From assembly GCA_045589435.1 (NCBI GenBank), contig JAZNPB010000008.1:21478-85477 (forward strand): a stretch of DNA of 64,000 bases, written 5' to 3'. How positions within the stretch are numbered: the stretch's first letter is position 1; each line of letters starts with the position of its first letter. Below the pieces are notes generated by a model. The model did no database searches, was not told the DNA's origin, and saw only the letters and a program-made list of their open reading frames with translations. Origin of the DNA: Eubacteriales bacterium. Lineage in GTDB: Bacteria > Bacillota > Clostridia > Oscillospirales > CAG-272. Made by a program: the position numbers and the translations under genes. Positions 13,101-33,062 of this stretch are shown piece after piece.

Positions 13101-13395
13101 CGACGGAATCAGAGAAATGCAGGAGTACGATAAAGTACACGCAGGTATCGCATTCTTCGGAGGCGGTAAGAACTACGGTGTGCTTCATTATGACAACTTT
13201 GATTTCTATGAATTCTCAAAGCCTTATGAGATCAGTCTTGCCGATGCGGGAAGATATGAGCTTACACTTGCAGCAGGAAATGAAGAATTCTATTTCGTTC
13301 TTTACGACTCAACAACACTTAATTTCCTATATGAAAAACAGGCGGCAATGAAGGGTGACCCCGAGGAGGGTTACAGCTGTCTTTACAAGAAATAA
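10183..13395 (+). CDS. Secreted or membrane-anchored protein with Ig-like (Big_2-type) segments and a beta-helix-like C-terminal half
   Basis: ATG 10183 has RBS gaaggag 10 nt upstream. Signal/anchor KKLILLILALPLFLMICLFTATSGVSLA. Big_2-like stretches (IDYTVYPTNAANQAVTVSY; SSNPEVVSVIGKRLKANGVGRSIITVTS). N/G/V-rich turn repeats (NICFAAYDNVTLNNVVLTGRNMIS; VNIEYSRVRNGRNVIRAFGD). Confidence 0.65.
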   Translation: MTKKLILLILALPLFLMICLFTATSGVSLAVPISVSGIELSSESYVEMDLDNPREQHVIDYTVYPTNAANQAVTVSYEPLVDDTGAEQRLAQFSYDEETRTLKPLSPGSAEVVITTVDGGFKARFTVYVKTKQLVSVEASHPSLGATVDEETGADKYILNPGEEFVVDIKCEPAGAQNVRVDVKSSNPEVVSVIGKRLKANGVGRSIITVTSRANKYISDSFVIEVENPENQSIVIVDKNVSTIETSGSIPISIYATTAYTLDAKVVDGEGNEIKDAYNYVRVWPNANNTAIEYYFVEDYYGTTFIDVTLKTDLGEVTTIRCSATKLHPSEQGEFRIEFDNSNYGMVYDQYDDIYFRIWPDDGSMDLEFKVEFNNGNVLVDQEIIPVGGSFYQLGIYSKFAGISELTVTATDKVTGQTTTKTVPITVKPSMIGVTPPKYDGIEGSFTIGKYNANHTESSPSLYEYVLNYKISDKVGEGFYENLKWISSSDAVYVDENGKIVFVEGKDIEDFVTFTVVFSANGVETKSQAIKIRCVSNGYNATSYKELLKLTNEGKVVVLQNDIVDDFGKDLTGFEYPLYTEMQSTYDTTWYKNQGREAEAKIKVLISFRASVYGNGHEINANNVVSVGQNSSFAENGQPQLTNDAIFRGPLSFVGLADGKGQGGAVTVAAQDNICFAAYDNVTLNNVVLTGRNMISENGTYNLQQLHYAGTVVEVFGDVNIEYSRVRNGRNVIRAFGDDTPFGDVGPDRNINLSVTNSVLSNGRDFIMRVGSNKFIDGREGDKDALSPYIRDDDPTDRVDYSMRHHYSDDKYTDGERSKYDEQFIRTFVTLKNSVLEEPGIFGIGVDSHFAGTALQNGENFKEYAANSEALNYWKNMAKTSYGVKLTLSGDVRMYCWKDLNTVDSTSLIETMNGFNLGLLSAESLAFDIPTLVRSAVNSNSNLVNVVYNPEVNKEVSNGKGTWMQIWNRDANNDGIREMQEYDKVHAGIAFFGGGKNYGVLHYDNFDFYEFSKPYEISLADAGRYELTLAAGNEEFYFVLYDSTTLNFLYEKQAAMKGDPEEGYSCLYKK

Positions 13396-13449
13396 TTGAA
13401 CGTAAAAATTTCAACTTCACGTTTATTCGCATTTTGAAAGGAAAATTAT

Positions 13450-13521
13450 ATGAAACAAATTTTATGTAGAATTTTGGTGTTACTCGTAGTAATCGCCGCT
13501 ATATTAGGTTTGTCCTCGTGT
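13450..13521 (+). other. Lipoprotein signal peptide with lipobox (Cys24)
   Basis: Basic n-region (K2, R7), hydrophobic core ILVLLVVIAAILG, lipobox L-S-S-C. Confidence 0.75.
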
Positions 13522-16500
13522 AATATTTTCATAGAACCGGAATTAACCACATACGATCTCGTGGTAGAAGACTTTGACCGAGAAGTAGTTTTCGGCTCGG
13601 AGCTTGACCTTGAGGGGCTCTACCTCAGGGCAACCACGGGAGATGATGTGAAGGTCATTCCCGTTAATGCCAGCATGATTAAAAACGGAGATACAAGCTC
13701 CGTTGGTGAAAAGGAGCTTACCATCGAGTATGGTGGCTTCAGCTGGCAGCTCAGCTATGACGTATATTACAAGGTCGAGCACATAGTAGACGGTATGGTT
13801 TACGATTCCCAGATGGTAATGTCGAGAGATGAGCTCTTCTACGTTAAAGAGCCTTCCAAGACCGGATCCATTTTCCTTAGCTGGGATAAAGCAATTCCTA
13901 GTGAATTGACAGATAACCTTACCATCACCGCTGTATTCTTGGACGGTCTTGAGCTTCCCAAGTTCAGCGCGACTTACGGCGATACTCTTGGCGATCTCGA
14001 GCTTCCTGAAGCAAAGGGCGGCCATTGGGAGTGGAAGCATGATCTTGATACTCCCGTTGGAAACGCAGGTAAGCTTAATACGTTTACTCTCGCTTTCATT
14101 CCTGAGGTAAATACAGAGAATGCTATCGAGTTTGACGTTAATATCAGCGTTGCTAAAAAAGAACTCGAAATCAGAGTCCTTGAGGACACCTTCGAGTACG
14201 ACGGTGAAAAGCATAATGTTAAATATGCAATTTACGATGGCGATAAGCTGGTTGACTACTTCGTGAACGTTATCGAGTTCAGTAGTCCTCAGTCAGTAAT
14301 CGGCACGTACGACTATACAATTCAGATGGCAGATGCCAATTATACTGCCACAGCACGTAAAGGTTCATTCTCTATCGTTAAGATAGCAGTTACCGTTCGT
14401 GTTGAGCTTGATAAGAGCTCCATCAAATACGGCGAAGATTTTCCCGGATACAGAATCATAGTAGAAAAAGACGGCGAAGCCTTTGACTTTGAAGATGGAA
14501 TCAAGCTTGGTATTATCAAACCCGCAACTCTTGAAAAGGGATATTATGATATCGTTGCTACCGTAAAAGATGAAAACGGCGATGATATTGATAACCTTTA
14601 CAAGTATGATATCACATATGTAAACGCTGGATTTACCGTAGAGGGTATTGATTTCAACCCCGGCAAGCCTCAGTTCTCAACAGCTGACGGAACCGATATA
14701 TTCTACGGCGATAAGCTCAGCAAGGTCGTATTCGATCCTCATCCAAACGGTGAGTGGACTTGGGACTTTGATTACGCAGGCGGAGATACAGTAGGTGACG
14801 CTAATCCCGAACCTAAGCTCTTCCGCGCAATATTCACTCCCTACGATACGAGCTATAACGTATACTATGCAGATATAGCTATCGAGGTAAGAAAGAAAGA
14901 GCTTAACGTTGACCTTGATATGAACAATCCCGCAGAAAAGACCGTTACTGTTATATATGACGGAAAAGAACACGGTATCAAGTACGTGATCTGGGATTGG
15001 GATGCAAATCACGAGGAAAAGATCGATCTTACCGATAAATTTAGCGTAACAGGCAATGTTACTTACGTTACAGCAAAAGAAGAAGGATACAAGATCGTAA
15101 TCAGAATCGATCATCCAAACTATACCGGTGAAGATGAGTTCAAGCTTATAATCAAGAAAGCTGTTCCTGAAACTGATTTTGACCGTATCATCACAGCAAC
15201 ATGGCAGAGCGGTATGACCCTTGCAAGTATCGAACTTCCCCAGGGATACGCATGGGAACCTGTAGGAAATACAGCTCCAAACAAGGTTGCTGTCACAGGC
15301 GCAGGTACTTACACTTATACAGCCACCTTCACACCTGAAGACACAACTAACTATCTTACTGTTACCGATGATTTCACAGTAGTTGTAACTCATGCAAACT
15401 CCACCATCGATGGTCTTAACGCTTCTTATGACAGCTGGACCTTCAATAATAACGATCACAAACTCGCAGATCTTCTGTCCGGCATTACCGTAACAGGTAC
15501 TGACAGAGTTGTTAAGTATTATTATAATGGTAGAGAAGTTACCACACTTAAGGAAGCAGGCACATACCTCATCACAGTTAGAGTGCTTGAGAGCGGACAG
15601 TATAAAGAGGTTTCTGCTGATACAATCGTAATCATCAAGAGAGCGACAGCGGAGATCAATAACTACGGTATTCCCGATAATGGCTGGACCTACGGCCATG
15701 ATGCAAAGACTCCTTACGCTTACAAGAATTTGTCATACGTAGGCGACATCGTTGTTGAATATAAGCTCGCTTCAGCAGCAGACAGCGCGTATACAACAAC
15801 CGTTCCTACTCTTGCAGGCGCATACGTAGCTCGCTTCAGCATCGTAGGTGGCGAAGGCTATAACTGGAATAGCGCAGAACCAAAGTACGTAAACTTCACG
15901 ATCGCAAAAGCAGTTGTTACAGCTCCTACTATTACGAGCAAGATCTACACAGGCTCATCTCAAAAAGCAGACGTTGAACCAACTGATCTTTATACGATCA
16001 AAGAAAACCTTGGCGGAACAAACGCAGGTAACTACAACGTAGTTCTCGCCCTCACCGACAGTGCAAACTATAAGTGGGAAAAGACCGATGCAGCTGAATA
16101 TACAGCAACCTTCAGCATCGGAAAGGCACCTAACGCCATTGCTCCCTTCGAGGCAGGCACATGGGTTTACGGTGACGAAATTTCTCACTCTACAACAGCA
16201 ACCTTTGGCGAAGTAGTTAAGATCACTTACTACGATAAGCAGAACAATAAGGTAACAAGCTTTGATGCCGGTGAATATGTTGCAAGAGCAGAAGTAGAGG
16301 GAACCTCCAACTATGAGGGCGCAGTTCTCAGCGTTAACTTTACAGTTGGACAGCTTCCCGTAGCAGTTCCCGAGCTTAAGGAGAACACCTTCATCTATAC
16401 AGGATCTCTCATCAAGCCCGAGTTCAAGACAGCTATCCCCGAAAATGCTCCTTACTGGGTAACAAACGACGGTAAGGTAGCGGTGAACAACTCCACAACT

Positions 16501-19500
16501 CCAACTTATGCAGTAACTCTCCAGCTCAAGAATAACAACTACAAGTGGGCAGACGGAGATACAAGCAATATTAAGTCACTCACATACGTGATCAATAAGG
16601 CGGAGGCAAAGATCTCCGGTCTTACCATCACCGGCTGGACATTTGGAGACGATGCAAATTCTCCTTCAGCAAGCACAACCTTCGGTACTATCAGTTATGA
16701 TTACTACGTAAATGGTGCATGGCAGACAGCTGCTCCTAAAAATGCAGGCAATTACACAGTAAGAGCGACCGTTAACGGTACCGGTAACTTTGACGGTGAT
16801 TTTGCTACATTTGACTTCACCATTGCAAAGGCAGATGCTACAATTAACGGCGTAAATGCTGATAAAAAGTACACAACTGTTTACAGTGGAAGCAAATTCA
16901 GCATTGCAGGCGTAACATCATCTCACACAGAAACAACTCCTGTTTATACAATTAAGAACAGTGCAGGCGTGACCGTTGGAGAGATGGTAAATGCGGATAC
17001 CTACACAGTTATTATCTCCCTTGCTTCTACTGCAAACTACAATGCAGCAGAATCTATTGAGGTTGAAGTATTTATTGACAAGTTCGACGTTCATACACCC
17101 GAGCTTGTATCCAATAGCCGTATGTATAACAAGGGTATATACAAACCCGCAGTTAAGACTGATGCGCACAACAAGTACTACACCTACGAGTATTCAACTC
17201 CTGATAGTACTATCGTTGGTACGTACAGCGTAAACTTCACTCTTAACAATGAAAACTACAGATGGGACGATGCAACGTTTGCAAACGTTCTCACCTACAA
17301 TATCACAAAGGCGAATGCTGAGATCACTCTCACAAGCAACGCATTTGAGAAATATTATCGCATTCAGGGTTATACTCGTGCAGACGTTATCACAGGCGTT
17401 GGCAGAAGCCATGAGGAATCCGAGCTTTCTTACAGCATTGAAAGCTTCGGCGATGCAAACACATATACAGTAATAGTTTCTCTCCCTGCCAGCCATAACT
17501 ACAATGCGGCAGAGAATAAGACGATTACCGTTACTATCAAAAAGCAGCTCGTTTATGCTCCATCTATTTCCGACCTTATCTATAACGGCGCAGCACAGGC
17601 TCCGGACGTTGATGATTCAGATCTCTACGAGGTATTTGAAAACGTAGGCGGAACTAACGCAGCAGCATATAACGTAGTGCTTAGACTTAAAAACTCTGCA
17701 AACTACAAGTGGTCTGATGATGCTACGGATGAGGCTGAAAAGACAACTGTAGTTTACAATATCAAGCCAGCAACCATTACTCTTTCTGAACTTACAACAA
17801 AGACGTTCAAGTATCTTGATACAATTTCTTTCACCTCCCAAAAGTCATATAACGTTGATAATAAGACTGACTTCGGTGTTGTAAGATACATTTATTCCAA
17901 GACCGCAGACTTTGCGGTGACCGTAACTCCCGATGACGTTGGATTCTACTATGTAAAGGCATACGTGGATGGCGACATCAACTGGGGCTATGAAGAAACA
18001 CTTCCCGTAAGATTCCAGATTACAGAAAGACCTTTCGATGTTCCCGCCCTCAGCTGGACCAGCAAGGTTTATAATGATGAAATTCTTAAACCTACCGTTG
18101 CAAAGGACGACAACATCTACAGCGTACAGTTTGTAACTGAAAATAGCGAAGATGTTGGTACTTACACTGTAAAATTCACTCTTACGAACAGCAACTACAA
18201 GTGGAATGACGCATATTCCGGTACAGAGAGATCTCGTACTTACAGCATTACTCCTGCAACACCTACAATCGCAGGATTTGCAAGTACAAGCAAACCTTAT
18301 GATACCCATGCGATGAACCTTTCCACAACAGCATCTATCCCAGGAAGCACCCTTTCCGCAACCATCACATACTATAGCGCGAAGGATGACGCCGCAGTTA
18401 TTCCTGCACCTACAAACTTCGGTACTTACTATGTTAAGGCATCCGTAGGATCAGGCAAGAACTGGAGCGCAGCTTCTACAGACTTCATTGAAATCAATAT
18501 CACAAAGGCAAGCGCTAATATCACAGTTGATACAAGTGACATAGTTGTAACCTATGGTGATACTTTCGCACTTCCTATCGCTACAACAAATCTCGGTTCT
18601 GTAAATGTAGATAAGACCGTTGCAGATCTTGTAAACGTTGGAACTTATTACGTAACTTATACAGTAGTAGGAAACACAAACTACAACGGTGATACAGAAA
18701 CTGTTAAGGTAATTATCGGTGAGCTTGCAGTAGACGAGCCTACCGTAATTGGTACACTTACTTATCTGACCAACGCTAGTGGCGTTGCTATTGAGCAGCA
18801 GGTCAACCTTGGTGTACTTCCTTCCTATATGACTATTAAGGAAGGCACAAACAAGGGAACCTTGGCAGGTGGATACACCGTAGAGATCACCCTTGATAAA
18901 AACCACAAGTGGGCAGAAAACTCTGACGGTCGTGTGGAATGGTCTATCGCAAAGGCAAAGCTTACAAAGCCTACTGCGAATACAGCCACATTTACCTACA
19001 ACACAGAAAGCCAGACTTACACACCTGTAAACTTCGATGCAAAGACAATGAGCATCACAAATAACGTTCAGTCCAATGCAAACGAAACAGGTTACAGCGT
19101 TGTTGTAAGCATTTCCGATACTGCAAACTACGAATGGGTAGGCGGCACTCAGGAAAACATCGGATTTACATTCGTAATCAACAAGCTTGAAGTAGTTGAA
19201 CCTCAGGCAATCGGTACACTCACCTATATGGTTGACTCCGAAAACGTAGCTATTGCTCAGCAGGTCAACCTCGGTGTACTTCCTTCATACATGACTGTAG
19301 TTGAGGGAACCGACGTGAAGAGTGCAGCAGGTAACTACACTGCAAAGATTACACTCGATGAAAACCATAAGTGGGCATCTGGCTCTGACGGTGACGTAGA
19401 GTGGTCTATCGCAAAGGCGAAGCTTACAAAGCCTACTGCGAATACAACCACATTTACCTACAACACAGAAAGCCAGACTTATACACCTGTAAACTTCGAT

Positions 19501-22500: not shown

Positions 22501-25500
22501 GCAAAGGCAGATATTGTTAAACCTAATATCACAGTTAATGCAACTTACGGTGACACCCTTGCAGATATTAAGTCCCAGCTTTCAAACTATGATAACGCAA
22601 ACGGAAACTGGACATGGGTAGATGCAGATACAACATCTGTTGGTGATCACGGACGAAATACGTTTAAGGCTAAGTTCACATCTACTGATAGTAACTTCAA
22701 CAGTATTGATGAATATCCAGTAACTGTAGTAGTTGCAAAGAAAGATATTTCCGGCGCAACAATAACACTTACAGGTCCCGCTCTCACATATACAGGAGCA
22801 GCGCAGACCCAGAACTACACAGTAGAGCTTGATGGATTTGCTACCTTCACTTACGATGATGATAACACTAACGTGGCTACCAACGCAGGTACACATACCA
22901 TCACCATTGCTGGTACAGGTAACTTTGATGGCGAAGTAACTAAGATCTTCGAAATCAAAGAAAAGACCATTACAGCTGATGATATAACAGTTAGTGAAAT
23001 CATCTATAATGGCGAAGAACAGACTCCTTCTGTAACAGTAGAAATCGATGGTATTATAGGCAGCATTACTTATGACGTGACCTGGAGCGATGCTACTGTT
23101 AAGGATGTAAGACCTGAAGGACGCTTGTATTCAGTAACAGTAACCGGTACTGATAACTTTGACGGTGTAGTAACTAAAGAGTTCAACGTTACACCTCTTG
23201 ATATTACAGAGAACGAAAACGTTGAAATATCTCTTGACAACAGTCTAACCTACAACAACGGAACAACTCTTATTCAGCAGTTTACTGTAAGAGTAAAAGT
23301 TGTAACAACCGAGGGTGAAAAGGTGCTTATTGTACCTTGTAATGTACTTGAAAAGACAAATGAAGTAAAAATAGCAGGCTCTCACACATTGCGTGTGGAA
23401 GCAAACGATGATAACTTCACAGGTACTGCGATAACGACCTTCAGCGTTGCAAAGGATAACTACGATATGAGCAATGTTCAATGGAGCGCATCTACGTTCG
23501 AGTACAATCAGACAGAAAGAGAAGTAACTATCGTAAGCGGTCTTCCCACAGGTGTAACTGTAACTGGTTACGAAAAGAATAAGGGAACTGTAAAGGGTGA
23601 TTACACAGCAACAGCAATTCTTTCCTATGATGAGCAGAACTACCATGCTCCTAGCGCAACTCATAATTGGAGTATCACAACAGCATATATCGAAATGCCT
23701 ACAAAGGGAACAACAAGCTTCACTTATGATGGAACCGAAAAGACGTTCTTCAGCCAGACCAGCACTTATTGGACTGCAACAGGAACTCTTAAGGCAACTG
23801 ATGCAAGTACAAGAAAGTATGTTGTAACAATTACCTTCAATGCAGCAGATATTGGTAGCTGTCAGTGGAAAAATGCAGAAACAGGAAAAGAAACTGCAGC
23901 ACTCACATATGAGTACACAATTTCTCCTCTTGATATTACAAACGCAACAGTAAATCTTGATACAAGTACACCTCTTGTTTATGGTGGTAACATGACTCAG
24001 AATGTTATCAGCATTACAAAGGATGGTAAAACATTCTTAGTTAAGGACGGAGAAGTAGTTAACTTCTTAATAAGCGGCAACGTAGCAGAAACAGCAGGTA
24101 TTCATCCATTGACTGTAACTGCAAACAACAGTAACTTCACAGGTTTTGTAACTTGTGACTTCAACGTTGCAAAGGATACCTTTGATATGACTGGTGTTCA
24201 TTGGAATTACTCCGGTACTCCGTTCGTTTATGCAAAGAATACAACTCATACGGTAGAACTCGTAGGTCTTCCCGTAGGCTTAACACCTGTATACAGTGGC
24301 GTATATAGCGCAAGCGAGTTTGGCACTTACACTGCAAAAGTAACGTTCACTTACGATACTGTAAACTATGAAAAACCTACCGTTGCAGATTGTGAATGGA
24401 AGATCAATCCTGCAGAAGACAATGTGGGAACATTCACACCTGGTACAACCTCTTGGACATACGGAGATACAGTTACCTATACAGCAACATCTACGTATGG
24501 AACACCTACAATTAAGCTCTATGACTCTGAAGGAACGCTTCTTGAAACCTTCACAGGAACAAACGGAACTGCAACAGTATCCATTGGTCTCGGTGCAGGT
24601 ACAGGCTATAAAGTAAAGGTAACCTACGAAACATCTGCTAACTGGAATGCTGTAGCAGACAAAGAAACTACCTTCGACGTAGCACCGTCTACAGTTTACA
24701 CAGCAACTGCAGATGCAATTACAGATGCAGTTTATAGAGATCTTCTCTTAAGCAAGAAGGAAATTCCTACCGGTAGCGCATCTATTGCCGGTACATGGAG
24801 CTGGACTAGTGCTAATGCTGAAACAACTGTTGGTGATTTCGGCACAAACACATTCTACGCAACCTTCGAACCTACAGATCCAAACTACGCAGTGAAAACT
24901 AATGTTCCAGTAACTGTAATTGTAGACAAGGCAACCTTCAATATGGATGGCGTTAAGTGGGATTACTCCGGTACACCATTCGTTTATGCAAAGAATACAA
25001 CTTATACGGTAAAACTCGTAGGTCTTCCCGAAGGCTTAACGCCTAAATACGGTGGTGTATGCAGCGCATCTGCAGCAACAGATGATCATTACACCGCTAC
25101 AGTAAGCTTCGAGTACGATGCTAGCAACTATTACGCTCCTGGAGAAATAGATGATCTCGAATGGAAGATTGACAGAGCTCCAGTAAATAGACCTGCAAAG
25201 GATACTACAGTATACACCTACGATGGAGTAACCACCCACGAGTATAAGATCGTGAAGAATGATGAATTCTACAAGATTGAAGGAACACTTTCTGCAATGG
25301 CGGGTGGCACTTATGAGATTACCATTACTCTCGCAGATGGCAATAACACAAAGTGGGATGATGGAAGTACAGCTTCTCTTGTATATGACTTCGTAGTAGG
25401 TAAGGGTACGAACGCATTCACTGGAACTCTTACTATGGAGGGCTGGGAACACGACTCTACTGCAACTACACCTTCTGGCATTACTGGTGCTAAGTGGGAT

Positions 25501-28500
25501 TACGATGCATCTAAAGTAAAGTATGAGTATCGTGATTTAGACGGTGAGTGGTATGCCGAAAGTGAATTCCGTCCAGAGAATGACAGTCCTTTTGGAACAT
25601 ATGCAGTTCGTGCATATATGGAAGGTAACAACAACTACGATAAGTTCTATTCAGATGAAGTTGAATTTGAAATTACCGTAAAGACAGTTACAATTCCCGA
25701 AATTAACGCAACACAGGAATATGTAGAAGACGGAGATAATTACCCAACTATTAAGGGTACCAACGACATATTTGCAGAGGGCGATCACGGTGATTATACT
25801 GTAGAATATGTAGAAGGTATTGGTACAAAAGTTGGAACAACCTATTACGTATATGTAACTCTTAAGGATACTGTAAATACTAAGTGGAGTGATGGTACTA
25901 CTGAACCTAAAACTCTCTCCTATAGACTTACAGGTACACCTGCAAATATTGTGGTTGACGATGGCAATGACAAGATCGTGGACGGTTGGACCTTTGGAGA
26001 GGAACCTGCTGATTATGCAGCGGTTATTAAGGCTCTCACAAAGGTTTACTTCAAGGGTGAAGAAGTTCAAGACTTTGCAATGTCACTTAAGTACTACACA
26101 AGCAATGATGCTAATGCTGTTGGTTCGACAGATGTTCCTCAAGACCACGGAACATACTACTTCAAGATAGTAGTGGCAGCAGGCGCAGGATACGATACAA
26201 CTGAAAGTGACTTCTATCAGTTCGAAATCGCTCAGGCTCCTCTTACCCTTGGAGCAGATGTTACCGGAATCACTATTGGTGGTGTAGAATACGGCACAGC
26301 TCTTGAAAGTGTAAGCGTTTCTAATAAGGTTTACTACTACGACGGAGAAGAGTACAAAGAAATCTCCGGTACATGGTCATGGGATTCCGATAGCGAAGAA
26401 CTCGGCGCAGTAGGAAACTACACACGCACTGCAATCTTCACACCTAGTGATGACAACTACGCTCCTCTCACAGTAGAAGACGTACAGATTACAGTAGTTC
26501 CCAAGACTATCACCGTAACAAACAGCAGCCCTGCTGAAGATAAGGATACCGATGATTATCTTGACCTTGAATTCAAGGAAAGCGGATACGTAGAGGCAAA
26601 CTTTACAACAGTTACATTCAAGTGGAACAACGAAGAAGTAACTCTTGTTAAGGGCGAAAGCGGTGATTACATTGTGACTGTAACTTACGCTGGCGGAACT
26701 GCAACTCAGTACACAAATGCAGGCGTTTACACAGTAATAGTAACTCTCATTCAAAATGCAGACGGCAGTTATAATTACAACTTCGGTGTAAAAAATGTCG
26801 AAGGAACACCTACACCTATTGTAACCCAAACGTTCGTATTCGAGATTGAGAAGGCAACGTTAACACTCACCAATGGATTACCCGAAAATGCAGATTGCAC
26901 TTATGGTGGTACTTACCATGATAAGGGCGCAAGCTACTTTGAAGGATTGGCAACTCTCACACATGGTACAAAGACCTTCACACCTAGTGTAACAATCGCT
27001 TACTCAACAGACGGTTCCACTTATGGTGATGAAAGCACAACTCTTACCATCGGCGATGTAGGATATTACAAGATTACTTACACATATACCGGTAATGGCA
27101 ATTATGCATACTTCTCTGGTGAGGTAAAAATTCAAATTACACCAGCGGAAGTAAGGGTTGAAACTCCTAAACATAAGGGTTCCTTCTACGAGGATACGTT
27201 TAACTTCCTTGATGATAAGAATGATCAACCTAAAGCATATGACGCTGTTACTGGAGTTGAGCTTGTAGGCGGAACATTCAGTTGTGTAAGCTTGCACTTC
27301 AATTCAGAAAACCCAAATAATAGCTATTACATGCTGTCCTATAATCCTAACAACGCTAACTATAAGTGTTCCACTAATTTTGAAGTTCCAGTTTCTCTCA
27401 TTACAGTTGCAACTCTTCAAAGAGGAACCGAACTTACTAAATACGGTAGTATTGCAAAAGCGTTGGCAGCTGCTACAACTAGCGGTGATAAGGTTTGGGT
27501 AATTCCTGATACAAGCGGTAACATTGTTATTGATACAACTGATGTAAGTAAGACTGTTACTGTTAATGCAGGAACAACCTTGATTCTTCCTTACGCTAAG
27601 TATAACGGTGGAAACGATGCGAATGGCACATACAGAAATAATAGCTATGTTGCAACACTTACAGGTGACGGACTTCCCAAGGATACCAATCTTAAGACAC
27701 TTGTAATTCTTGGTAACGGCGTAACACTTGAAGTAAAGGGAACTCTCCATATAGCAGGTGAACTTTCCGGTGGTAACGGCGGAGCTCATTATTCAAGTCA
27801 TACCAAGGGTAATTATGGAGAACTCAGACTTGGTACTGATTCAACTCTTATTATTCCTAAGGATGTGAACGGAAAGATTGAGTGCTACGGCTTCATAACA
27901 CCGCTTGGAGAAAATAACGGTAGTAAGGTTGAAATTAGAGGCGGTACACTTTATCAGCCATTCACTCTCCTTGACCACCAAGGTGGTACTGCTCTTTCCT
28001 CTATCAAAAACAAAATGAATAGCAACCATATTGCACCATTCTATGAGTATCAGTTCAGAAACGTTCAGACCGATGTTTCAATTCACTATGGCGGCAAGCT
28101 AACAGTTTATGCAAACATGGATGCAACTTTACCGTTAGTAAATACTCTTCAACATAATGGTACACTGGTATGTATGGTTGGCCACGAAAAAGATACCGAA
28201 ACTGATAAAATGCCAATGCTTCAGCTTACAAGTTCAGAGTCGTACCTTAACGCTAAATTTGATAAGACAACTGGAATTCTGGACCTTGATCTCTTTGGTG
28301 GAGCAAAGCTTAACAGCATGGTTATGACGATTACGTTTGGAACGGATATTCCATTGTCAACTGAAAGCGTATTCTTCCCATTATCATGGACCATGGATAT
28401 TTCTCTTAATCCTACTGAAGAGCAAAAGTCCCAAAATAGAATAGCGCAATATAACGCTCCTTATATGATGCAGCTTGCTTGGGGAGGCAAATTCACAGTT

Positions 28501-31500
28501 GAGAAGGGCGCCAAATTTACGGTAAAAGATTTGGTTATCCATGATAACTATGAAACTAATCACAATATAGGTCTTCAGGAATATGCAAAAGCCAGCCCTG
28601 ATAAAGTGACAAGTAGACAAGATGCGATGTTCATTCTTAGAGGCGAGCTTTTTGTAACAGACGCAATCGGCGGCAAAGTTCGTGCTGACACTCCCGGTGC
28701 AAAGATTATCGCAGCTAGCGTTTCCTGCGTTTGGTATAAAGTGACTAGTAATAAAGCTGCAACAGAAGCTCTTACTTATAATCTCTCACTCTGGAAGCAT
28801 AGCAAGAGTGATGAAACTATCACCTATACTCAGTCTGATGTATCTGCAGCTGCAGGTGTGATTGCTTGGTATAACGGAAACGATTGGGTATCCGGATCTA
28901 CAGATACCGGCTTTGATGTTGTTATCAAGTACGTTGGTATCAATTCCGATGGAACGGAAACGGAAATCAAGAGTGATTATCACCATACCTATGATATATC
29001 CACGCTTAGTACGATCTTTGCAAACACGTTTATTGATCTTTCCGATGCTGATGATGGTAACTATAAGTTCATCGGTTGGTACTTATGTAAAGGCAATAAC
29101 GGATTCACTGATGAATACAGAATAATTACCGATAGAATTAGTCTTGAAGAGCTTTATACAAAGCTTGCTGCTGACGGTTATAACAACGTTACTATCTACT
29201 GCGTAATGGCTAACCCATCTTACACATTTGAGTATGATGATGGAACTGATTCTACAGCAGATGATAGCACGGCAAAATATTCTGCAACTCAGCTTCCTTA
29301 TGCATCTCTTGTAACTCTCGATCAGTATGACTTTGATACAACGGTTTCAAAATATCATACTGGCTGGAAGCTTGTTGATGCTAACGGAAACGAAATTGCA
29401 ACATTCACCAGAACAGATGTTATCACATGGAGCGTACCTGATCTTGAAGATATAGTAACAGCATATCTTTCTTCTATAGAGTGTGTTGATAATAACTACA
29501 CCTTCAAGCTTGTTGCAGTATGGACAGACAAGACGGCTGTTACTGTAAATTACGGTGAAAATGTTATTGATCTTGAAAATACTGTAATCTATCTCAACCA
29601 TGCATTTGGTCAGAGTAGTTACGACGATCTCGCGGATCTTACAATGGGAGATACTGAATACGATAAGAGCCTTTACTCTAACGGATGGGAAACTCCCGAT
29701 GGTGTAACCGTTTCCGGAACGACTGTAACTATTACGTCAACTGCAAACGTAGAGATCAAGGCTAAATGGCTCAATAAGGTTGTTCTCACTATCTATTATG
29801 GTGAAAATAGTCTTGGCTTGTCCCCTGTAACTACTATTTATCTAAATACAAGCCAAAATCAGACGTCTTATAAGACCAGTGTTCTTGCCGCTAAGACTGA
29901 CTCTACCAAGGAAACATTCTTCAATGGTTGGAAGGAGATGAGCAACTGTACAGTTAATGCTGCCGGAGATATAATCAATGTAACTTCCGGAGCAACAGAA
30001 GCTTCTATTCTTGCCAATACATGGGGAGTTAAGGATTGTGTAACAGTTGAATACGGCAATAACAACTTAGGTCTTCCCTTATCTAAGATAATCTATATTA
30101 ATCCTGATACTAATTCTTGTGTTATCGATAACGTAAATGCAAATGATGCTAATGTTACCGTAATTAAGTACTTTGACACTTGGGTTGGATTTGCTCTTAA
30201 TGCAGATGGTACTTATACTTACACAACCGACACAGGTATAACAATTACTATCAATGGCAGAAACATCACACTTGGTGGCAGCCTGACAGACACTGTAGAT
30301 AACGTTATTATCACAGCAAAGTGGGGAGAAAAAGAAAATATCAAGTTCAGTGGAAACAACGGTCTTACCGGTGAGAGTAATGTTAGTGTTGACGTTGAAG
30401 GTTATGTAAGAACTAATACCAATGATAACTTTGTTGCAGATATACAAAAAATGTTGGCAGATAAGATCAAAGATCAGGCTAATATAAAGGATAGTGATCC
30501 TGATGTAAATCAGTATTTCTATGGTTTATCTTATAATGGCAAGACTTATAGTGAATACGATTCTGATAATCCTTATTCCAATATGGAGTATGTAGAAAAG
30601 GTTAACTCCATAACAGTTGAATGGACTGGCAAATATGAAGTAAAAGTTTCGTCAAGCAATGCTAATGTAACGGTTAATGGAAATTCAGTAAGCAATAACG
30701 GAAGTGTATATTTTAAGCCCGGTGACAAAGTTACAGTAAGTGTTAGTTACACTCAGACTGAAAAACAAACTACTACCATAACAGGCGCAGATAAGACTAC
30801 TTATACTTCTCCATTCGATATGCCTAGCCAAGCGGTTACAATTAGTGCTAGTAGCTCAAGCTGTATCGCAGCCGGAACACTCATCACCCTCGCAGATGGA
30901 ACACAGAAGAAGGTTGAAGATCTCCTTGACACTGATATTCTTCTCGTTTACGATCACGAGAGAGGAGAATACGTTGCTTCACCTATTGTATTCATCGAGA
31001 GAGACGGTTGGAATTACTACAACGTAATCTATCTTGAATATTCAAACGGTGTTACTAATAAGCTTATTTACGAGCACGCTATGTTCGACCTCACTCTTAA
31101 TACTTACGTATATATCACAGAGGCAAATTACCTTGATTACGTAGGTCACGAGTTCGCATACTTCAACGGTGAATCTATTGAAAGTGTGACTCTTGAAAAC
31201 GCATACGTTAAGAATGAGTACACAGGCTGCTTCAGCTTGGTAACAGCAGTTCATCTCAATTACTTCATTGATGGAATGTTCTCGATCCCAGGTGGTATTG
31301 AAGGCATATTCAACATCTTCGAGTACGGAGAGGACCTTAAGTATGATTCTGAACAGATGCAGAAGGATATTGAAACTTACGGACTTTACACTTACGAAGA
31401 TTTCGCAGAGTATGTTCCGGAAGAAGTATTCTATGCATTCCAGGCACAGTACTTCAAGGTTGCAGTTGGCAAGGGTATGATCACATTTGAAGAAATCATC

Positions 31501-31545
31501 GAAATGATTGATAGATACCTTGTTAAAAACGGAGTTATTGAATAA
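13450..31545 (+). CDS. Giant (6031 aa) surface lipoprotein/adhesin: MBG/YDG-like repeats, conserved module, Listeria-Bacteroides-type repeats, C-terminal Hint domain
   Basis: One uninterrupted 18,096-nt frame with RBS aaagga upstream. Signal peptide plus lipobox MKQILCRILVLLVVIAAILGLSSC. Dozens of 80-110-aa repeats with recurring motifs (F.YDG..H, IY.G..Q, ATYGD.L, GTY.Y.A.FTP.D.NY, NYKW.D). No LPXTG, SLH, choline-binding or dockerin motif noticed. Confidence 0.9.
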   Translation: MKQILCRILVLLVVIAAILGLSSCNIFIEPELTTYDLVVEDFDREVVFGSELDLEGLYLRATTGDDVKVIPVNASMIKNGDTSSVGEKELTIEYGGFSWQLSYDVYYKVEHIVDGMVYDSQMVMSRDELFYVKEPSKTGSIFLSWDKAIPSELTDNLTITAVFLDGLELPKFSATYGDTLGDLELPEAKGGHWEWKHDLDTPVGNAGKLNTFTLAFIPEVNTENAIEFDVNISVAKKELEIRVLEDTFEYDGEKHNVKYAIYDGDKLVDYFVNVIEFSSPQSVIGTYDYTIQMADANYTATARKGSFSIVKIAVTVRVELDKSSIKYGEDFPGYRIIVEKDGEAFDFEDGIKLGIIKPATLEKGYYDIVATVKDENGDDIDNLYKYDITYVNAGFTVEGIDFNPGKPQFSTADGTDIFYGDKLSKVVFDPHPNGEWTWDFDYAGGDTVGDANPEPKLFRAIFTPYDTSYNVYYADIAIEVRKKELNVDLDMNNPAEKTVTVIYDGKEHGIKYVIWDWDANHEEKIDLTDKFSVTGNVTYVTAKEEGYKIVIRIDHPNYTGEDEFKLIIKKAVPETDFDRIITATWQSGMTLASIELPQGYAWEPVGNTAPNKVAVTGAGTYTYTATFTPEDTTNYLTVTDDFTVVVTHANSTIDGLNASYDSWTFNNNDHKLADLLSGITVTGTDRVVKYYYNGREVTTLKEAGTYLITVRVLESGQYKEVSADTIVIIKRATAEINNYGIPDNGWTYGHDAKTPYAYKNLSYVGDIVVEYKLASAADSAYTTTVPTLAGAYVARFSIVGGEGYNWNSAEPKYVNFTIAKAVVTAPTITSKIYTGSSQKADVEPTDLYTIKENLGGTNAGNYNVVLALTDSANYKWEKTDAAEYTATFSIGKAPNAIAPFEAGTWVYGDEISHSTTATFGEVVKITYYDKQNNKVTSFDAGEYVARAEVEGTSNYEGAVLSVNFTVGQLPVAVPELKENTFIYTGSLIKPEFKTAIPENAPYWVTNDGKVAVNNSTTPTYAVTLQLKNNNYKWADGDTSNIKSLTYVINKAEAKISGLTITGWTFGDDANSPSASTTFGTISYDYYVNGAWQTAAPKNAGNYTVRATVNGTGNFDGDFATFDFTIAKADATINGVNADKKYTTVYSGSKFSIAGVTSSHTETTPVYTIKNSAGVTVGEMVNADTYTVIISLASTANYNAAESIEVEVFIDKFDVHTPELVSNSRMYNKGIYKPAVKTDAHNKYYTYEYSTPDSTIVGTYSVNFTLNNENYRWDDATFANVLTYNITKANAEITLTSNAFEKYYRIQGYTRADVITGVGRSHEESELSYSIESFGDANTYTVIVSLPASHNYNAAENKTITVTIKKQLVYAPSISDLIYNGAAQAPDVDDSDLYEVFENVGGTNAAAYNVVLRLKNSANYKWSDDATDEAEKTTVVYNIKPATITLSELTTKTFKYLDTISFTSQKSYNVDNKTDFGVVRYIYSKTADFAVTVTPDDVGFYYVKAYVDGDINWGYEETLPVRFQITERPFDVPALSWTSKVYNDEILKPTVAKDDNIYSVQFVTENSEDVGTYTVKFTLTNSNYKWNDAYSGTERSRTYSITPATPTIAGFASTSKPYDTHAMNLSTTASIPGSTLSATITYYSAKDDAAVIPAPTNFGTYYVKASVGSGKNWSAASTDFIEINITKASANITVDTSDIVVTYGDTFALPIATTNLGSVNVDKTVADLVNVGTYYVTYTVVGNTNYNGDTETVKVIIGELAVDEPTVIGTLTYLTNASGVAIEQQVNLGVLPSYMTIKEGTNKGTLAGGYTVEITLDKNHKWAENSDGRVEWSIAKAKLTKPTANTATFTYNTESQTYTPVNFDAKTMSITNNVQSNANETGYSVVVSISDTANYEWVGGTQENIGFTFVINKLEVVEPQAIGTLTYMVDSENVAIAQQVNLGVLPSYMTVVEGTDVKSAAGNYTAKITLDENHKWASGSDGDVEWSIAKAKLTKPTANTTTFTYNTESQTYTPVNFDAKTMSITNNVQSNANETGYSVVVSISDTANYEWVGGTQENIGFTFRIYKLAVEEPTVSSTHTYTSVEHTVTLDKFYDSYMDIVLGTDKGTAAGNYCVEIKLDDNYVWKFGHDGKVDWTIAQATTSITGLSITGWTYDQYNAVTNKANYTVTTDSGFVIPESYIKVWYKSTKAGSTWSEIVPTDADTYQFKVVVGTDANENWAAEELISNEFTVEQLAVNEPTATGTYTYTVVDNEAIVHEVTLVGYDSSYMTITLGTNKESTAGTHTVIITLDNNHKWAENSDGHVEWSIAKAKIDLKDVEWNYSDAFAYNGEAKSVALKTASLPGGFGTIYTVNYTNNSETDEGDYTASAAFAFLGNNSSNYEFVGTVADCEWKIDPAEDNVVTFTAGATSWTYGDTVSYTATSTYGTPTIKIYDSEGTLLATSTGANGTATVSIKLNADTNYKVTVTYETSANWNTVENVEATFGVAQSTAYTAKANSIDDAVYGDLLLAKRAIPTGTVTVNGTTLAGTWKWQNVTSETKVGSAGTNTFYATFTPDDANYAATTNIAVTVNVAKYGLAVPNGIQVEYNDGHTVYSGVASSYFNDKLSSDGILDTDIIDVVDNGGSAVGDVVTLTLTIKDEFKGNYYWISYNADETVATTTYIVVVDKNSWEVDGEPTDMEWTYGEDGEVVDEPTANPVSGIGSEKKITYKLQSDADIPENWNDWSTISAETPAGTYDVKFVVTHPNYADMEKTVKLVIKTRVVELPTLATNSFTYQGKDAQGNDIVITPVVTHNDDETLYETINTGNVNVGTGYKITFTLPNKNYEWADGHGNEDNKLVYELTYNITAATDNEGTFTAGATSWTYGDTVTYTATSKYGTPTIKLYDSEGTLLETFTGANGTATVSIGLGAGTGYKVKVTYETSANWNAVADKETTFDVAQSTAYTATADSINAVYGDLLLSKKEIPTGSASIAGTWSWNSANAETTVGDFGTNKFYATFTPDDANYAATTNIAVTVNVAKADIVKPNITVNATYGDTLADIKSQLSNYDNANGNWTWVDADTTSVGDHGRNTFKAKFTSTDSNFNSIDEYPVTVVVAKKDISGATITLTGPALTYTGAAQTQNYTVELDGFATFTYDDDNTNVATNAGTHTITIAGTGNFDGEVTKIFEIKEKTITADDITVSEIIYNGEEQTPSVTVEIDGIIGSITYDVTWSDATVKDVRPEGRLYSVTVTGTDNFDGVVTKEFNVTPLDITENENVEISLDNSLTYNNGTTLIQQFTVRVKVVTTEGEKVLIVPCNVLEKTNEVKIAGSHTLRVEANDDNFTGTAITTFSVAKDNYDMSNVQWSASTFEYNQTEREVTIVSGLPTGVTVTGYEKNKGTVKGDYTATAILSYDEQNYHAPSATHNWSITTAYIEMPTKGTTSFTYDGTEKTFFSQTSTYWTATGTLKATDASTRKYVVTITFNAADIGSCQWKNAETGKETAALTYEYTISPLDITNATVNLDTSTPLVYGGNMTQNVISITKDGKTFLVKDGEVVNFLISGNVAETAGIHPLTVTANNSNFTGFVTCDFNVAKDTFDMTGVHWNYSGTPFVYAKNTTHTVELVGLPVGLTPVYSGVYSASEFGTYTAKVTFTYDTVNYEKPTVADCEWKINPAEDNVGTFTPGTTSWTYGDTVTYTATSTYGTPTIKLYDSEGTLLETFTGTNGTATVSIGLGAGTGYKVKVTYETSANWNAVADKETTFDVAPSTVYTATADAITDAVYRDLLLSKKEIPTGSASIAGTWSWTSANAETTVGDFGTNTFYATFEPTDPNYAVKTNVPVTVIVDKATFNMDGVKWDYSGTPFVYAKNTTYTVKLVGLPEGLTPKYGGVCSASAATDDHYTATVSFEYDASNYYAPGEIDDLEWKIDRAPVNRPAKDTTVYTYDGVTTHEYKIVKNDEFYKIEGTLSAMAGGTYEITITLADGNNTKWDDGSTASLVYDFVVGKGTNAFTGTLTMEGWEHDSTATTPSGITGAKWDYDASKVKYEYRDLDGEWYAESEFRPENDSPFGTYAVRAYMEGNNNYDKFYSDEVEFEITVKTVTIPEINATQEYVEDGDNYPTIKGTNDIFAEGDHGDYTVEYVEGIGTKVGTTYYVYVTLKDTVNTKWSDGTTEPKTLSYRLTGTPANIVVDDGNDKIVDGWTFGEEPADYAAVIKALTKVYFKGEEVQDFAMSLKYYTSNDANAVGSTDVPQDHGTYYFKIVVAAGAGYDTTESDFYQFEIAQAPLTLGADVTGITIGGVEYGTALESVSVSNKVYYYDGEEYKEISGTWSWDSDSEELGAVGNYTRTAIFTPSDDNYAPLTVEDVQITVVPKTITVTNSSPAEDKDTDDYLDLEFKESGYVEANFTTVTFKWNNEEVTLVKGESGDYIVTVTYAGGTATQYTNAGVYTVIVTLIQNADGSYNYNFGVKNVEGTPTPIVTQTFVFEIEKATLTLTNGLPENADCTYGGTYHDKGASYFEGLATLTHGTKTFTPSVTIAYSTDGSTYGDESTTLTIGDVGYYKITYTYTGNGNYAYFSGEVKIQITPAEVRVETPKHKGSFYEDTFNFLDDKNDQPKAYDAVTGVELVGGTFSCVSLHFNSENPNNSYYMLSYNPNNANYKCSTNFEVPVSLITVATLQRGTELTKYGSIAKALAAATTSGDKVWVIPDTSGNIVIDTTDVSKTVTVNAGTTLILPYAKYNGGNDANGTYRNNSYVATLTGDGLPKDTNLKTLVILGNGVTLEVKGTLHIAGELSGGNGGAHYSSHTKGNYGELRLGTDSTLIIPKDVNGKIECYGFITPLGENNGSKVEIRGGTLYQPFTLLDHQGGTALSSIKNKMNSNHIAPFYEYQFRNVQTDVSIHYGGKLTVYANMDATLPLVNTLQHNGTLVCMVGHEKDTETDKMPMLQLTSSESYLNAKFDKTTGILDLDLFGGAKLNSMVMTITFGTDIPLSTESVFFPLSWTMDISLNPTEEQKSQNRIAQYNAPYMMQLAWGGKFTVEKGAKFTVKDLVIHDNYETNHNIGLQEYAKASPDKVTSRQDAMFILRGELFVTDAIGGKVRADTPGAKIIAASVSCVWYKVTSNKAATEALTYNLSLWKHSKSDETITYTQSDVSAAAGVIAWYNGNDWVSGSTDTGFDVVIKYVGINSDGTETEIKSDYHHTYDISTLSTIFANTFIDLSDADDGNYKFIGWYLCKGNNGFTDEYRIITDRISLEELYTKLAADGYNNVTIYCVMANPSYTFEYDDGTDSTADDSTAKYSATQLPYASLVTLDQYDFDTTVSKYHTGWKLVDANGNEIATFTRTDVITWSVPDLEDIVTAYLSSIECVDNNYTFKLVAVWTDKTAVTVNYGENVIDLENTVIYLNHAFGQSSYDDLADLTMGDTEYDKSLYSNGWETPDGVTVSGTTVTITSTANVEIKAKWLNKVVLTIYYGENSLGLSPVTTIYLNTSQNQTSYKTSVLAAKTDSTKETFFNGWKEMSNCTVNAAGDIINVTSGATEASILANTWGVKDCVTVEYGNNNLGLPLSKIIYINPDTNSCVIDNVNANDANVTVIKYFDTWVGFALNADGTYTYTTDTGITITINGRNITLGGSLTDTVDNVIITAKWGEKENIKFSGNNGLTGESNVSVDVEGYVRTNTNDNFVADIQKMLADKIKDQANIKDSDPDVNQYFYGLSYNGKTYSEYDSDNPYSNMEYVEKVNSITVEWTGKYEVKVSSSNANVTVNGNSVSNNGSVYFKPGDKVTVSVSYTQTEKQTTTITGADKTTYTSPFDMPSQAVTISASSSSCIAAGTLITLADGTQKKVEDLLDTDILLVYDHERGEYVASPIVFIERDGWNYYNVIYLEYSNGVTNKLIYEHAMFDLTLNTYVYITEANYLDYVGHEFAYFNGESIESVTLENAYVKNEYTGCFSLVTAVHLNYFIDGMFSIPGGIEGIFNIFEYGEDLKYDSEQMQKDIETYGLYTYEDFAEYVPEEVFYAFQAQYFKVAVGKGMITFEEIIEMIDRYLVKNGVIE
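18721..19644 (+). repeat. Two tandem 462-bp (154-codon) in-frame repeat units
   Basis: The motif caggtcaacc is at 18799 and 19261 (offset 462). Cores 18940-19173 and 19402-19635 differ at 6 of 234 nt. More diverged partial copies at about 19645-19860 and 20140-20380. Confidence 0.9.
20611..21168 (+). repeat. Dispersed intragenic repeat, copy D1
   Basis: Encodes DCEWKIDPAEDNVVTFTAGATSWTYGDTVSYTATSTYGTPTIKIYDSEGTLL...FYATFTPDDANYAATTNIAVTVNVAK. Homologous to D2 and D3. Confidence 0.9.
22012..22506 (+). repeat. Dispersed intragenic repeat, copy D2
   Basis: Offset from D1 is 1356 nt (acctcttgga at 20671 versus 22027). Its 3' part (ttctacgcaaccttcacacccgatgatgcgaactacgcagcaacaaccaatatcgcggttactgtaaacgtagcaaa) is identical to D1. 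Confidence 0.9.
24388..24868 (+). repeat. Dispersed intragenic repeat, copy D3
   Basis: Offset from D2 is 2421 nt (acct at 22027 versus 24448). Perfect D2/D3 runs of 126 nt (22139-22264), 64 nt and about 69 nt. The two off-frame ORFs 21875..22195 and 24368..24616 translate to near-identical peptides. Confidence 0.9.
27091..29210 (+). other. Conserved module of about 700 aa shared with the truncated paralog at 33886..35900 (function unknown, beta-solenoid-like)
   Basis: Collinear protein similarity by eye. Giant first, paralog second: GNGNYAYFSG / NGNYAYSG; VWVIPDTSGNIVIDT / VWVIPNTSGDVIIDT; LILPY in both; ECYGFITPLGENNGSKV..LYQPF / NCYGFITEESKNNGSQV..IYQPF; FFPLSWTMDISLN / YFPISWVFDISLN; F.GWYL..IY (IYCVM / IYAKW). 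Confidence 0.8.
29000..30325 (+). repeat. Five Listeria-Bacteroides-type (Flg_new-like) repeats
   Basis: Repeated pattern ..Y..(F/Y/H).GW......(I/V).A.W: YKFIGWYLC..IYCVM; YHTGWKLVD..LVAVW; YSNGWETPD..IKAKW; FFNGWKEMS..LANTW; YFDTWVGFA..ITAKW. Confidence 0.65.
30862..31284 (+). other. Hint (Hedgehog/intein-type) autoprocessing domain, 141 aa, starting at Cys5805
   Basis: Block A: SSSS|CIAAGTLITLADGTQKKVEDLLDTDILLVYD. Block B-like: NKLIYEHAMF (the His is present). Block F/G-like: GCFSLVTAVHLNYFIDGMFS. The usual terminal His-Asn and a +1 Cys/Ser/Thr extein residue are absent. Confidence 0.75.
31285..31542 (+). other. 86-aa acidic, aromatic-rich, probably helical tail following the Hint core
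   Basis: IPGGIEGIFNIFEYGEDLKYDSEQMQKDIETYGLYTYEDFAEYVPEEVFYAFQAQYFKVAVGKGMITFEEIIEMIDRYLVKNGVIE. No family recognised. Confidence 0.5.
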
Positions 31546-31596: not shown

Positions 31597-31726
31597 CAAA
31601 ATTCCTAGGGGTGAAAATCCCCTAGGAATGACCACAAGAATTTACAATTTAAGCGCAAAATACGGTTTCGTATTTTGAAATAAGAAAAGCCCACCGCAGA
31701 TCTTTATGGTCTGCGGTGGGTATTTT
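31597..31726 (+). repeat. Three-hairpin 3' module, left copy; hairpin 3 acts as a bidirectional terminator
   Basis: H1: ttcctagggg-tgaaaat-cccctaggaa (31602-31628). H2: aaatacg-gttt-cgtattt (about 31658-31675). H3: cccaccgcaga-tctttatgg-tctgcggtggg (31690-31720) followed by tatttt. Inverted homolog at 33063-33192. Confidence 0.8.
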
Positions 31727-32870: not shown

Positions 32871-32907
32871 TTTACGTAATTTTCTCCTTGGTAGGACTTT
32901 TTCTTAT

Positions 32908-32936
32908 ATTATACTATTTTTTCAAGGAAAAATCAA
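32908..32936 (-). promoter_or_regulatory. Promoter of the SerC-like gene
   Basis: Minus-strand TTGATT (32936-32931), 17-nt spacer, TATAAT (32913-32908), about 38 nt upstream of ATG 32870. Confidence 0.5.
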
Positions 32937-33062
32937 GAGGTTTGGGAGTTTTTAGTTATTTTGTGGGGTGTATAGATAAAAACACTGCTTTTTTTGCTTT
33001 TTAATTTGCTTTTTATGAGTTTAAAAAAGCAGCGTCAAATATTACTAAATTAGCTAAAAAAA

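Follow-up and report, generated by a model that had tools for sequence, protein, structure and literature searches.

We analyzed a 64,000-nucleotide stretch of DNA, hereafter the window, from a Eubacteriales bacterium of the CAG-272 lineage (GenBank assembly GCA_045589435.1, contig JAZNPB010000008.1, positions 21,478 to 85,477 of the forward strand). It contains an 18-kb open reading frame (ORF) for a giant, repeat-built protein, which starts with a putative lipoprotein signal and ends with a Hint domain followed by a four-helix tail (Table 1). All 6031 codons are open, with no internal stop, and the product (659.9 kDa, pI 4.4) is high in Thr, Val, Asn, and Tyr. Giant surface proteins built of immunoglobulin-like (Ig-like) repeats and Hint domains are both already known. 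What is new is the combination of Hint domain and tail (Hint-tail) as a large, uniform, and strictly C-terminal family of gut Clostridia; no description of this family, or of proteins combining Flg_new repeats with Hint, was found in the searchable literature.

Table 1. Features of the giant gene and its surroundings in the window
Feature	Position	Strand	Residues	Remarks
ABC ATPase	7692-8423	+		upstream of the giant gene
Polytopic permease	8420-10135	+	571 aa	upstream of the giant gene
Secreted protein	10174-13395	+	1073 aa	upstream of the giant gene; without Pfam match
Shine-Dalgarno-like AAAGGA	13437-13442	+		7 nt 5' of the ATG; read from sequence
Giant ORF	13450-31545	+	6031 aa	stop codon included in coordinates
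Predicted lipoprotein signal peptide	13450-13521	+	aa 1-24	lipobox L-S-S-C with Cys24; from lipobox rule, hydropathy, orthologues
N-terminal beta-rich region, divergent	13522-14016	+	aa 25-189	weak Big_3 match at aa 43-96 (E 0.0036); aligns with orthologue N-termini
Stalk	14017-27399	+	aa 190-4650	~53 divergent Ig-like units (weak MBG type), ~80 aa each
Conserved all-beta module	27400-28941	+	aa ~4651-5164	~500 aa; without known family
Five degenerate Flg_new-like (Listeria-Bacteroides-type) units	28942-30327	+	aa 5165-5626	
Linker and beta-rich spacer ending in SSSS	30328-30861	+	aa 5627-5804	from composition only; not verified as Ig-like
Predicted scissile bond Ser5804/Cys5805	30859-30864	+	aa 5804-5805	codons AGC TGT; conserved Cys and small preceding residue
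Hint domain	30862-31296	+	aa 5805-5949	Cys1 = C5805; block-B His72 = H5876
Four-helix C-terminal tail	31297-31542	+	aa 5950-6031	82 aa; motifs DIETYGLYTYEDF and AVGKGxxT
Terminator-like hairpin	31689-31721	+		14-bp stem and T-run; 3' of the giant gene
Paralogous internal fragment	33244-36015	-		end of one Ig-like unit, module, and Flg_new-like unit
Second lipobox protein	36337-36726			lipobox

The gene is repeat-rich and its homologues in public assemblies are often broken by frame shifts or at contig ends, as would be expected of an assembly chimera or a decaying pseudogene, but we give that explanation almost no credence, because a stop-free 18 kb is not possible by chance at 43% G+C, DNA repeats within the ORF do not exceed 300 nt, at 82–91% identity, and independent assemblies encode colinear proteins that share its lipobox and its end. 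Without long identical DNA repeats, the gene is not prone to assembly collapse. The proteins colinear with the giant from lipobox to tail are P0144 (4938 aa, MKQIFCRILVVLTVIAAILGLSSC), P0147 (4030 aa), P0137 (3702 aa), and P0176 (3598 aa). In addition, a related metagenome-assembled genome (MAG) contains a syntenic locus (L003) with flanking genes of 75–80% DNA identity and at least 3563 open codons.

The closest metagenomic relative (L001, 60–11110), whose sequence includes N, has the giant gene broken into two ORFs, of 3282 and 401 aa, with a 4-nt overlap. The recorded gene there covers no more than the final 369 aa, which probably explains why a word-indexed protein search returned relatives of no more than 404 aa.

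Architecture from the signal peptide to the spacer

The N-terminus of the giant (MKQILCRILVLLVVIAAILGLSSC) has K2 and R7 as the positive residues within the first seven. The PROSITE-type lipobox rule, under which [LVI][ASTVI][GAS]C ends a signal with n- and h-regions and places its Cys at position 15–35, fits aa 14–24 (VIAAILGLSSC), and this signal segment is the only part of the whole protein with Kyte-Doolittle windows above 1.6. The lipobox is kept in the full-length orthologues, as ILGLSSC in P0144 and P0147, GLMAC in P0137, and MNAC in P0176. Judged from these sequences, Cys24 would be modified with diacylglyceryl and the signal peptide cleaved by Lsp.

Self-BLAST divides the remainder of the giant into repeats (approximately aa 100–4450), a unique stretch, a second repeat zone (aa 5300–5600), and a unique end. 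Five profiles grown from the giant itself resolve the first repeat region, the stalk, into 53 non-overlapping units. No part of the giant reached the curated cut-offs of Pfam or NCBIfam, either as large pieces or as tiled windows (71 windows of 170 aa, which gained little over the large pieces). Below threshold, MBG_3 appears in 9 of the 71 windows (best 1.6e-5; 16.8 bits for a large piece against a cut-off of 25), Big_3_5 in six (best 5e-6), and MBG_2 in two (E 0.01), and none of the MBG and YDG models (PF17883, PF18676, PF18887, and PF18657) matches the giant at its gathering score. Clear matches occur in relatives, two of which contain MBG_2 (1.8e-13) and one YDG (6.7e-9). When the stalk-unit profile was compared with the PDB, the matches were weak, and each was to an Ig-like domain.

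The module that follows recurs, by tblastn, in 18 Hint-tail loci as well as in the paralogous fragment of the window. It has no sequence relative in Pfam or the PDB, as judged by a profile search of the PDB and by Pfam searches of the 18 homologues, which gave no consistent family. A word-indexed homologue search with an 861-aa module query returned nothing, and its repetition with an alignment of locus-derived modules recovered three true homologues. Because of this small number, the AlphaFold2 model of the module is too poor to be used (predicted local distance difference test score (pLDDT) 47.6), with regular short strands. Foldseek matches to the model were non-significant (E of 0.024 or higher, template-modeling (TM) score ~0.1); beta-helix proteins rank first among them, a result that we did not use as evidence. 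The module is possibly a beta-solenoid.

When 144 bona fide Flg_new units of relatives were made into a profile, its five best matches in the giant, all sub-threshold, fell at aa 5165–5252, 5257–5359, 5365–5441, 5447–5522, and 5532–5626 (independent E values 1.7e-4, 0.13, 3e-3, 3e-3, and 0.012, respectively). Pfam Flg_new (PF09479) itself has no match in the giant; P0144 has a weak one (E 0.0017) at the site equivalent to the giant's units. The linker and spacer between these units and Hint gave no BLAST match to P0012, a carrier of Flg_new_2. Ser/Gly-rich linkers precede Hint in most relatives.

The original prediction, made from the sequence of the window, had described a single 18.1-kb ORF for a protein of 6031 aa and about 650 kDa, with a lipobox (LSSC) at Cys24, MBG/YDG-like repeats, a module without known family, five Listeria-Bacteroides-type repeats, and an Ig-like spacer ending in SSSS. 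The ORF, the lipobox, and the module are all borne out. The repeat stalk and the five units are likewise present, but the names given to them find sub-threshold support, through Pfam for MBG and through the relatives' profile for the five units; the spacer does end in SSSS, but its Ig-like label could not be verified.

The C-terminal Hint domain and tail

An AlphaFold2 model of the last 232 residues, made with 48 homologues, has high confidence (pLDDT 95.4, predicted TM score (pTM) 0.89) and consists of a beta domain (residues 6–150) followed by four helices, which are placed confidently against it. For the beta part, Foldseek returned 59 PDB matches at E of 1e-3 or lower, and all of those listed are inteins, bacterial intein-like (BIL) domains, or Hedgehog, with target-normalized TM scores of at most 0.84. 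They include the intein 1mi8 (0.84), Tetrahymena BIL2 6y75 (0.82), the Hedgehog domain HhC 1at0 (0.78), and a Clostridium thermocellum BIL domain, 2lwy (0.77). By sequence profile, the nearest solved structures are BIL2 (E 5e-5, over the whole Hint domain) and Hedgehog (2.7e-3). The modeled C-terminal beta domain is thus a true Hint fold. Of the Pfam Hint-family models, PF13403, PF07591, and PF14890 had no match listed at default thresholds.

The Hint domain starts with Cys without exception, in 80 of 80 genomic loci as well as in 132 of 132 representative proteins, and this Cys is preceded by a small residue (Ser, then Gly, Asn, and Thr). His72 (H5876 in the giant) is invariant across the family. 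The domain ends in GMFSIP (family consensus GMLSxP), with no C-terminal His-Asn, and the 82 aa behind it are a conserved domain, not part of a host protein. A mobile intein was considered and ruled out, there being no extein, no terminal Asn, and no endonuclease; the lack of a terminal Asn and of a C-extein excludes splicing and C-terminal cleavage.

The tail has no match in Pfam, even at E values up to 10, is not recognized by NCBIfam, and its helices have no Foldseek match. It is rich in aromatic and acidic residues and is better conserved than the Hint domain (53–58% identity versus 45%). A tail-only profile searched against 1.84 billion representative proteins found 2230, of which 1907 have E values of 1e-10 or lower. 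Among the matches listed, the tail is at the extreme C-terminus in 150 of 150, and Hint lies directly upstream in all 133 that are long enough to hold one. Taken together, the sequence family and the structural model indicate that Hint and tail are one C-terminal unit, the last 227 residues of the giant. The original prediction had placed a Hint domain at the C-terminus; the fold was identified correctly, but the protein ends in the 82-aa tail, which was missed.

The comparison with the syntenic locus L003 separates this unit from the rest of the protein. Protein identity to the giant is 87% in the Hint-tail, 34% in the module, and 34–43% in the stalk, and DNA of high identity begins 6 nt past the Cys codon. 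The passenger therefore diverges fast, and the processing unit is conserved as strictly as a housekeeping gene.

Scanning of species-representative genomes yielded at least 347 confirmed Hint-tail loci. The carriers are almost all uncultured gut Clostridia (Christensenellaceae, Pumilibacteraceae, Oscillospiraceae, Candidatus Coproplasma, Candidatus Scatosoma, and CAG:314), with up to three copies among the loci of one MAG and with proteins of 800 to more than 3500 aa. Eight Pfam families only were found in 29 full-length members: Flg_new, Hint, Peptidase_M73, N_methyl, MBG_2, MBG_3, YDG, and Flg_new_2. The Pfam searches of these 29 proteins revealed no SLH domain, LPXTG anchor, cell-wall-binding repeat, LysM, or dockerin. 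The giant itself likewise lacks the SLH, cell-wall-binding, LysM, and dockerin families by Pfam, and an LPXTG-like motif by regular expression and hydropathy, so the search for an overlooked canonical anchor agrees with the original prediction that there is none. The sole LPXTG-like candidate in 1.3 Mb of family loci proved to be a spurious ORF.

The N-termini of Hint-tail proteins are of at least four kinds: a lipobox, a hydrophobic segment with G-x-S-S-W-L-I, a SipW/TasA-type sequence (TFAWFTD), and a prepilin-type N-methylation signal. Prepilin-type proteins, with Pfam N_methyl, occur at L028, L033, and L053, and TasA/SipW-type proteins, with a camelysin/TasA-like domain, at L043, L055, L062, L065, and L079; these are 1500–1900 aa long and end in the Hint-tail. 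Genes for a SipW-like peptidase and for camelysin-like or small TasA-like proteins cluster near the SipW/TasA-type members. Given such N-termini, the Hint-tail seems to be built into several fiber systems.

In most family members, the conserved motif G-x-S-[ST]-W-[LIM]-I comes after an N-terminal hydrophobic segment (L004, L006, L008, L012, L014–L017, L020, L024, L035, L036, L067, and L078; P0122, P0130, P0133, and others). This motif recalls the G-T-W of TasA/SipW-type signals and may mark an undescribed class of signal or signal anchor. Two of these proteins, from a MAG labeled Prevotella sp. (L078, on a 9-kb scaffold) and from a Bacilli MAG (L067), have near-identical N-termini, MKI[R/K]NLI[S/T]ILLCFII...; the Prevotella label on so short a scaffold is probably a binning error.

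One locus, L073 (JBMNHS010000001.1, 650145–670825), belongs to a Methanomethylophilaceae archaeon. It lies on a 1.17-Mb long-read contig, is flanked by archaeal genes (aIF2-alpha, PAC2, and diphthamide synthase), and encodes, in a single ORF exceeding 3500 aa, both Flg_new repeats and a Hint-tail. A cultured member of this family has no cell wall or S-layer, and Methanomethylophilus alvi forms fibrils of up to 300 nm that have been attributed to Flg_new adhesin-like proteins (PMC10673518). A wall-less gut methanogen thus appears to have acquired the locus from gut Clostridia.

Gene neighborhood

The three genes upstream of the giant gene are closely packed and probably share one transcript. 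Locus L011 has the identical gene order (ATPase, permease, and a protein of the 1073-aa type) ahead of a lipobox Hint-tail protein, and the 1073-aa family adjoins Hint-tail genes in seven loci, including the window, being downstream once (L002). This secreted protein may be a partner of Hint-tail proteins. There is no neighbor gene that is universal to Hint-tail loci.

On the other side, no forward-strand ORF lies between the stop codon of the giant gene and the terminator-like hairpin. Hairpins are followed here by a convergent aminotransferase gene (31767–32870). This gene is bracketed by two hairpins that are alike (31601–31629 and 33162–33187, of the form CCTAGGGG...CCCCTAGG), which could represent a small repeated palindromic element or bidirectional terminators. 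Rfam and tRNA scans of the window returned no match.

The paralogous fragment is a 923-aa ORF whose module is 32% identical to that of the giant and which has neither a signal peptide nor a Hint-tail. The 3.2-kb segment that holds it (32874–36103) is absent from L003 and is therefore either an insertion in the window or a deletion in L003. The fragment may represent a copy in the course of decay or a silent cassette.

Farther downstream, a 657-aa CotH kinase-family protein (44837–46810, forward strand) is encoded amid housekeeping genes for BipA, formate-tetrahydrofolate ligase, PNPase, and an Asp/Asn-type tRNA synthetase. An ORF containing a sortase-like TLxTC motif (49172–49843) was rejected as a sortase, as it encodes a membrane protein of the glycine-transporter family.

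Possible functions of the Hint-tail unit

Based on its conserved residues and modeled fold, we think it probable that the giant is a membrane-tethered fibril with Hedgehog-like C-terminal autoprocessing at Ser5804/Cys5805. After Sec export, Lgt and Lsp would lipidate Cys24 and remove the signal peptide, leaving the N-terminus tethered to the membrane. The approximately 53 Ig-like units would form a stalk of about 0.2 µm, assuming 3.5–4 nm per Ig-like unit, with the module and the Flg_new-like repeats as a distal head. This geometry is suggested by the order of the parts, and an adhesive function, as implied by the term adhesin, by the architecture.

In the proposed autoprocessing, Hint and the four-helix tail would act like the Hedgehog "Hog" domain, which is composed of Hint and a sterol- or adduct-recognition region (SRR/ARR) (PMC2362128, PMC7765530). 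Cys5805, aided by His5876, would carry out an N-S acyl shift, converting the Ser5804-Cys5805 peptide bond into a thioester, and a nucleophile would then resolve the thioester and free the 5780-residue passenger from the 227-residue Hint-tail. Precedents for the resolution of Hint thioesters include a sterol, a lysine, and water as nucleophiles (PMC7765530, PMC2362128, PMC8616854). With water, the outcome here would be simple maturation or release; alternatively, the passenger would be transferred to an acceptor recruited by the tail. The occurrence of the Hint-tail behind four kinds of N-terminus, together with the lack of a universal neighbor gene, indicates that the unit is autonomous.

Several observations weigh against this proposal. 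The Thr of the block-B TxxH motif is replaced by Ile or Val (IYEH in the giant; consensus i.eH), and the family consensus has no conserved acidic residue in the region of Hedgehog Asp46. The Pfam Hint family PF01079 scores 16–18 bits, against a gathering score of 29.7, and aligns only over positions 7–145 of its 213. The tail has no sequence similarity to the Hedgehog SRR. Cleavage at Ser5804/Cys5805 is predicted from the conserved residues and the fold, and, if the N-terminus is already lipid-anchored, the gain from cutting off a C-terminal domain is not obvious.

Comparison with known systems places the Hint-tail among several of them. With the Hedgehog and Hog proteins of animals and protists it shares the C-terminal position on a secreted protein, the Hint fold, the Cys1/His72 spacing, the absence of a C-terminal Asn, some 80 aa of additional helical sequence behind Hint, and a similar total size; moreover, PF01079, which is of the Hedgehog type, is the only Pfam Hint family to match the giant. 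However, the Hint-tail is prokaryotic, its passenger is a giant fibril rather than a signaling domain, and, besides the lack of detectable SRR similarity and of Asp46 and the replacement of Thr69, it has no conserved equivalent of Cys143. Sterol transfer is implausible in the carrier organisms.

B-type BIL domains (Amitai et al. 2003, as described in PMC7765530) are similar in that, according to that description, they occur in variable secreted bacterial proteins, contain the intein motifs minus the C-terminal one, and have N-terminal cleavage chemistry, and the fold match to 2lwy adds a BIL domain of known structure. In contrast, the Hint of our family is strictly C-terminal, has an obligatory tail, and is centered on gut Clostridia; this comparison is by description rather than by profile. 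The Tetrahymena BUBL BIL2 domain (6y75, 6tmm) is the best profile match among solved structures, and its thioester is resolved by a lysine amine, giving an isopeptide conjugate without ATP (PMC8616854). Unlike the Hint-tail, BIL2 keeps the terminal His-Asn, is located between ubiquitin-like domains, has no helical tail, and is eukaryotic and cytosolic. Giant gut adhesins, including the Flg_new proteins of methanogens (PMC10673518), are also very long surface proteins built of repeats, with Flg_new- or MBG-type units, but the Hint-tail is absent from the published descriptions that we found, and the giant has a lipobox where those proteins have a C-terminal transmembrane helix or LPXTG.

A variant of Hedgehog-like processing, which we regard as possible but doubtful, is that a specific acceptor bound by the tail (possibly a lipid of the membrane, a glycan, or an amine of a target surface) takes the acyl group instead of water, which would make the unit an enzyme-free device for C-terminal ligation. 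The Hint-tail would then be a prokaryotic "Hog" that couples the fibril covalently, without sortase, to a membrane or glycan component, or else acts as a single-shot covalent "harpoon" aimed at a target surface. The tail sits where Hedgehog has its SRR/ARR, exceeds Hint in conservation, and is confidently packed against it, and the unit is spread in the manner of a sorting signal, ending many unrelated surface proteins (2230 representative clusters). The 29 full-length members lack a classical anchor, and some, with N-termini judged by eye, have seemingly cleavable signal peptides and no other visible retention device. Precedents are the sterol hydroxyl in Hedgehog and the lysine amine in BUBL BIL2 (PMC7765530, PMC2362128, PMC8616854). 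However, no acceptor can be named. Peptidoglycan was rejected as a general acceptor because the unit also occurs in the Methanomethylophilaceae archaeon, which belongs to a lineage with a wall-less cultured relative (PMC10673518), and the lipids of archaea and bacteria differ. Many members already have an N-terminal anchor, the consensus offers no activating residue like Asp46, and no dedicated partner gene was found at the loci.

It is also conceivable, though unlikely, that the Hint-tail does not cleave but caps the fibril tip in a structural or binding role, with the Cys serving in a disulfide or in metal binding. The missing block-B Thr and the sub-threshold Pfam scores would fit such a role, and the highly conserved tail, with its aromatic and acidic residues, could be a binding surface. 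However, Cys at the first position of the fold in 212 of 212 sequences, the invariant His72, and the small preceding residue together are the signature of an N-S acyl shift, and the family consensus has no second conserved Cys that could be used for a disulfide.

A polymorphic toxin, in which a Sec signal, a filament, and a pre-toxin HINT domain would precede a small C-terminal toxin released by Hint, is very improbable: the giant does share the Sec signal, filamentous repeats, near-C-terminal HINT, and proposed autoproteolysis of Sec-exported polymorphic toxins (Zhang et al. 2012, PMC3482391), but its C-terminal 82 aa, far from being polymorphic, are its best-conserved part and common to 2230 clusters, no terminal Asn is present for the release of a C-terminal cargo, no immunity-like ORF lies downstream of the giant, where genes vary between loci, and there is no match to a pre-toxin HINT or toxin family in Pfam.

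We therefore return to Hedgehog-like autoprocessing of a surface fibril as the reading that we favor. The family context of the Hint-tail, which the original prediction had missed, is the real point of interest. Hint domains are known for protein splicing, for the attachment of cholesterol to Hedgehog, and for the release of toxins. Here, large surface proteins of at least 1900 clusters terminate in a Hint-tail, in poorly known gut Clostridia and in at least one wall-less gut methanogen, whatever the mode of export or anchoring at the N-terminus. If the unit merely cleaves itself, it would represent a new maturation step for the main gut fibrils of these organisms. If transfer to an acceptor were true, it would constitute a new form of covalent surface attachment and give bacteria a system with which the origin of Hedgehog autoprocessing could be compared directly.

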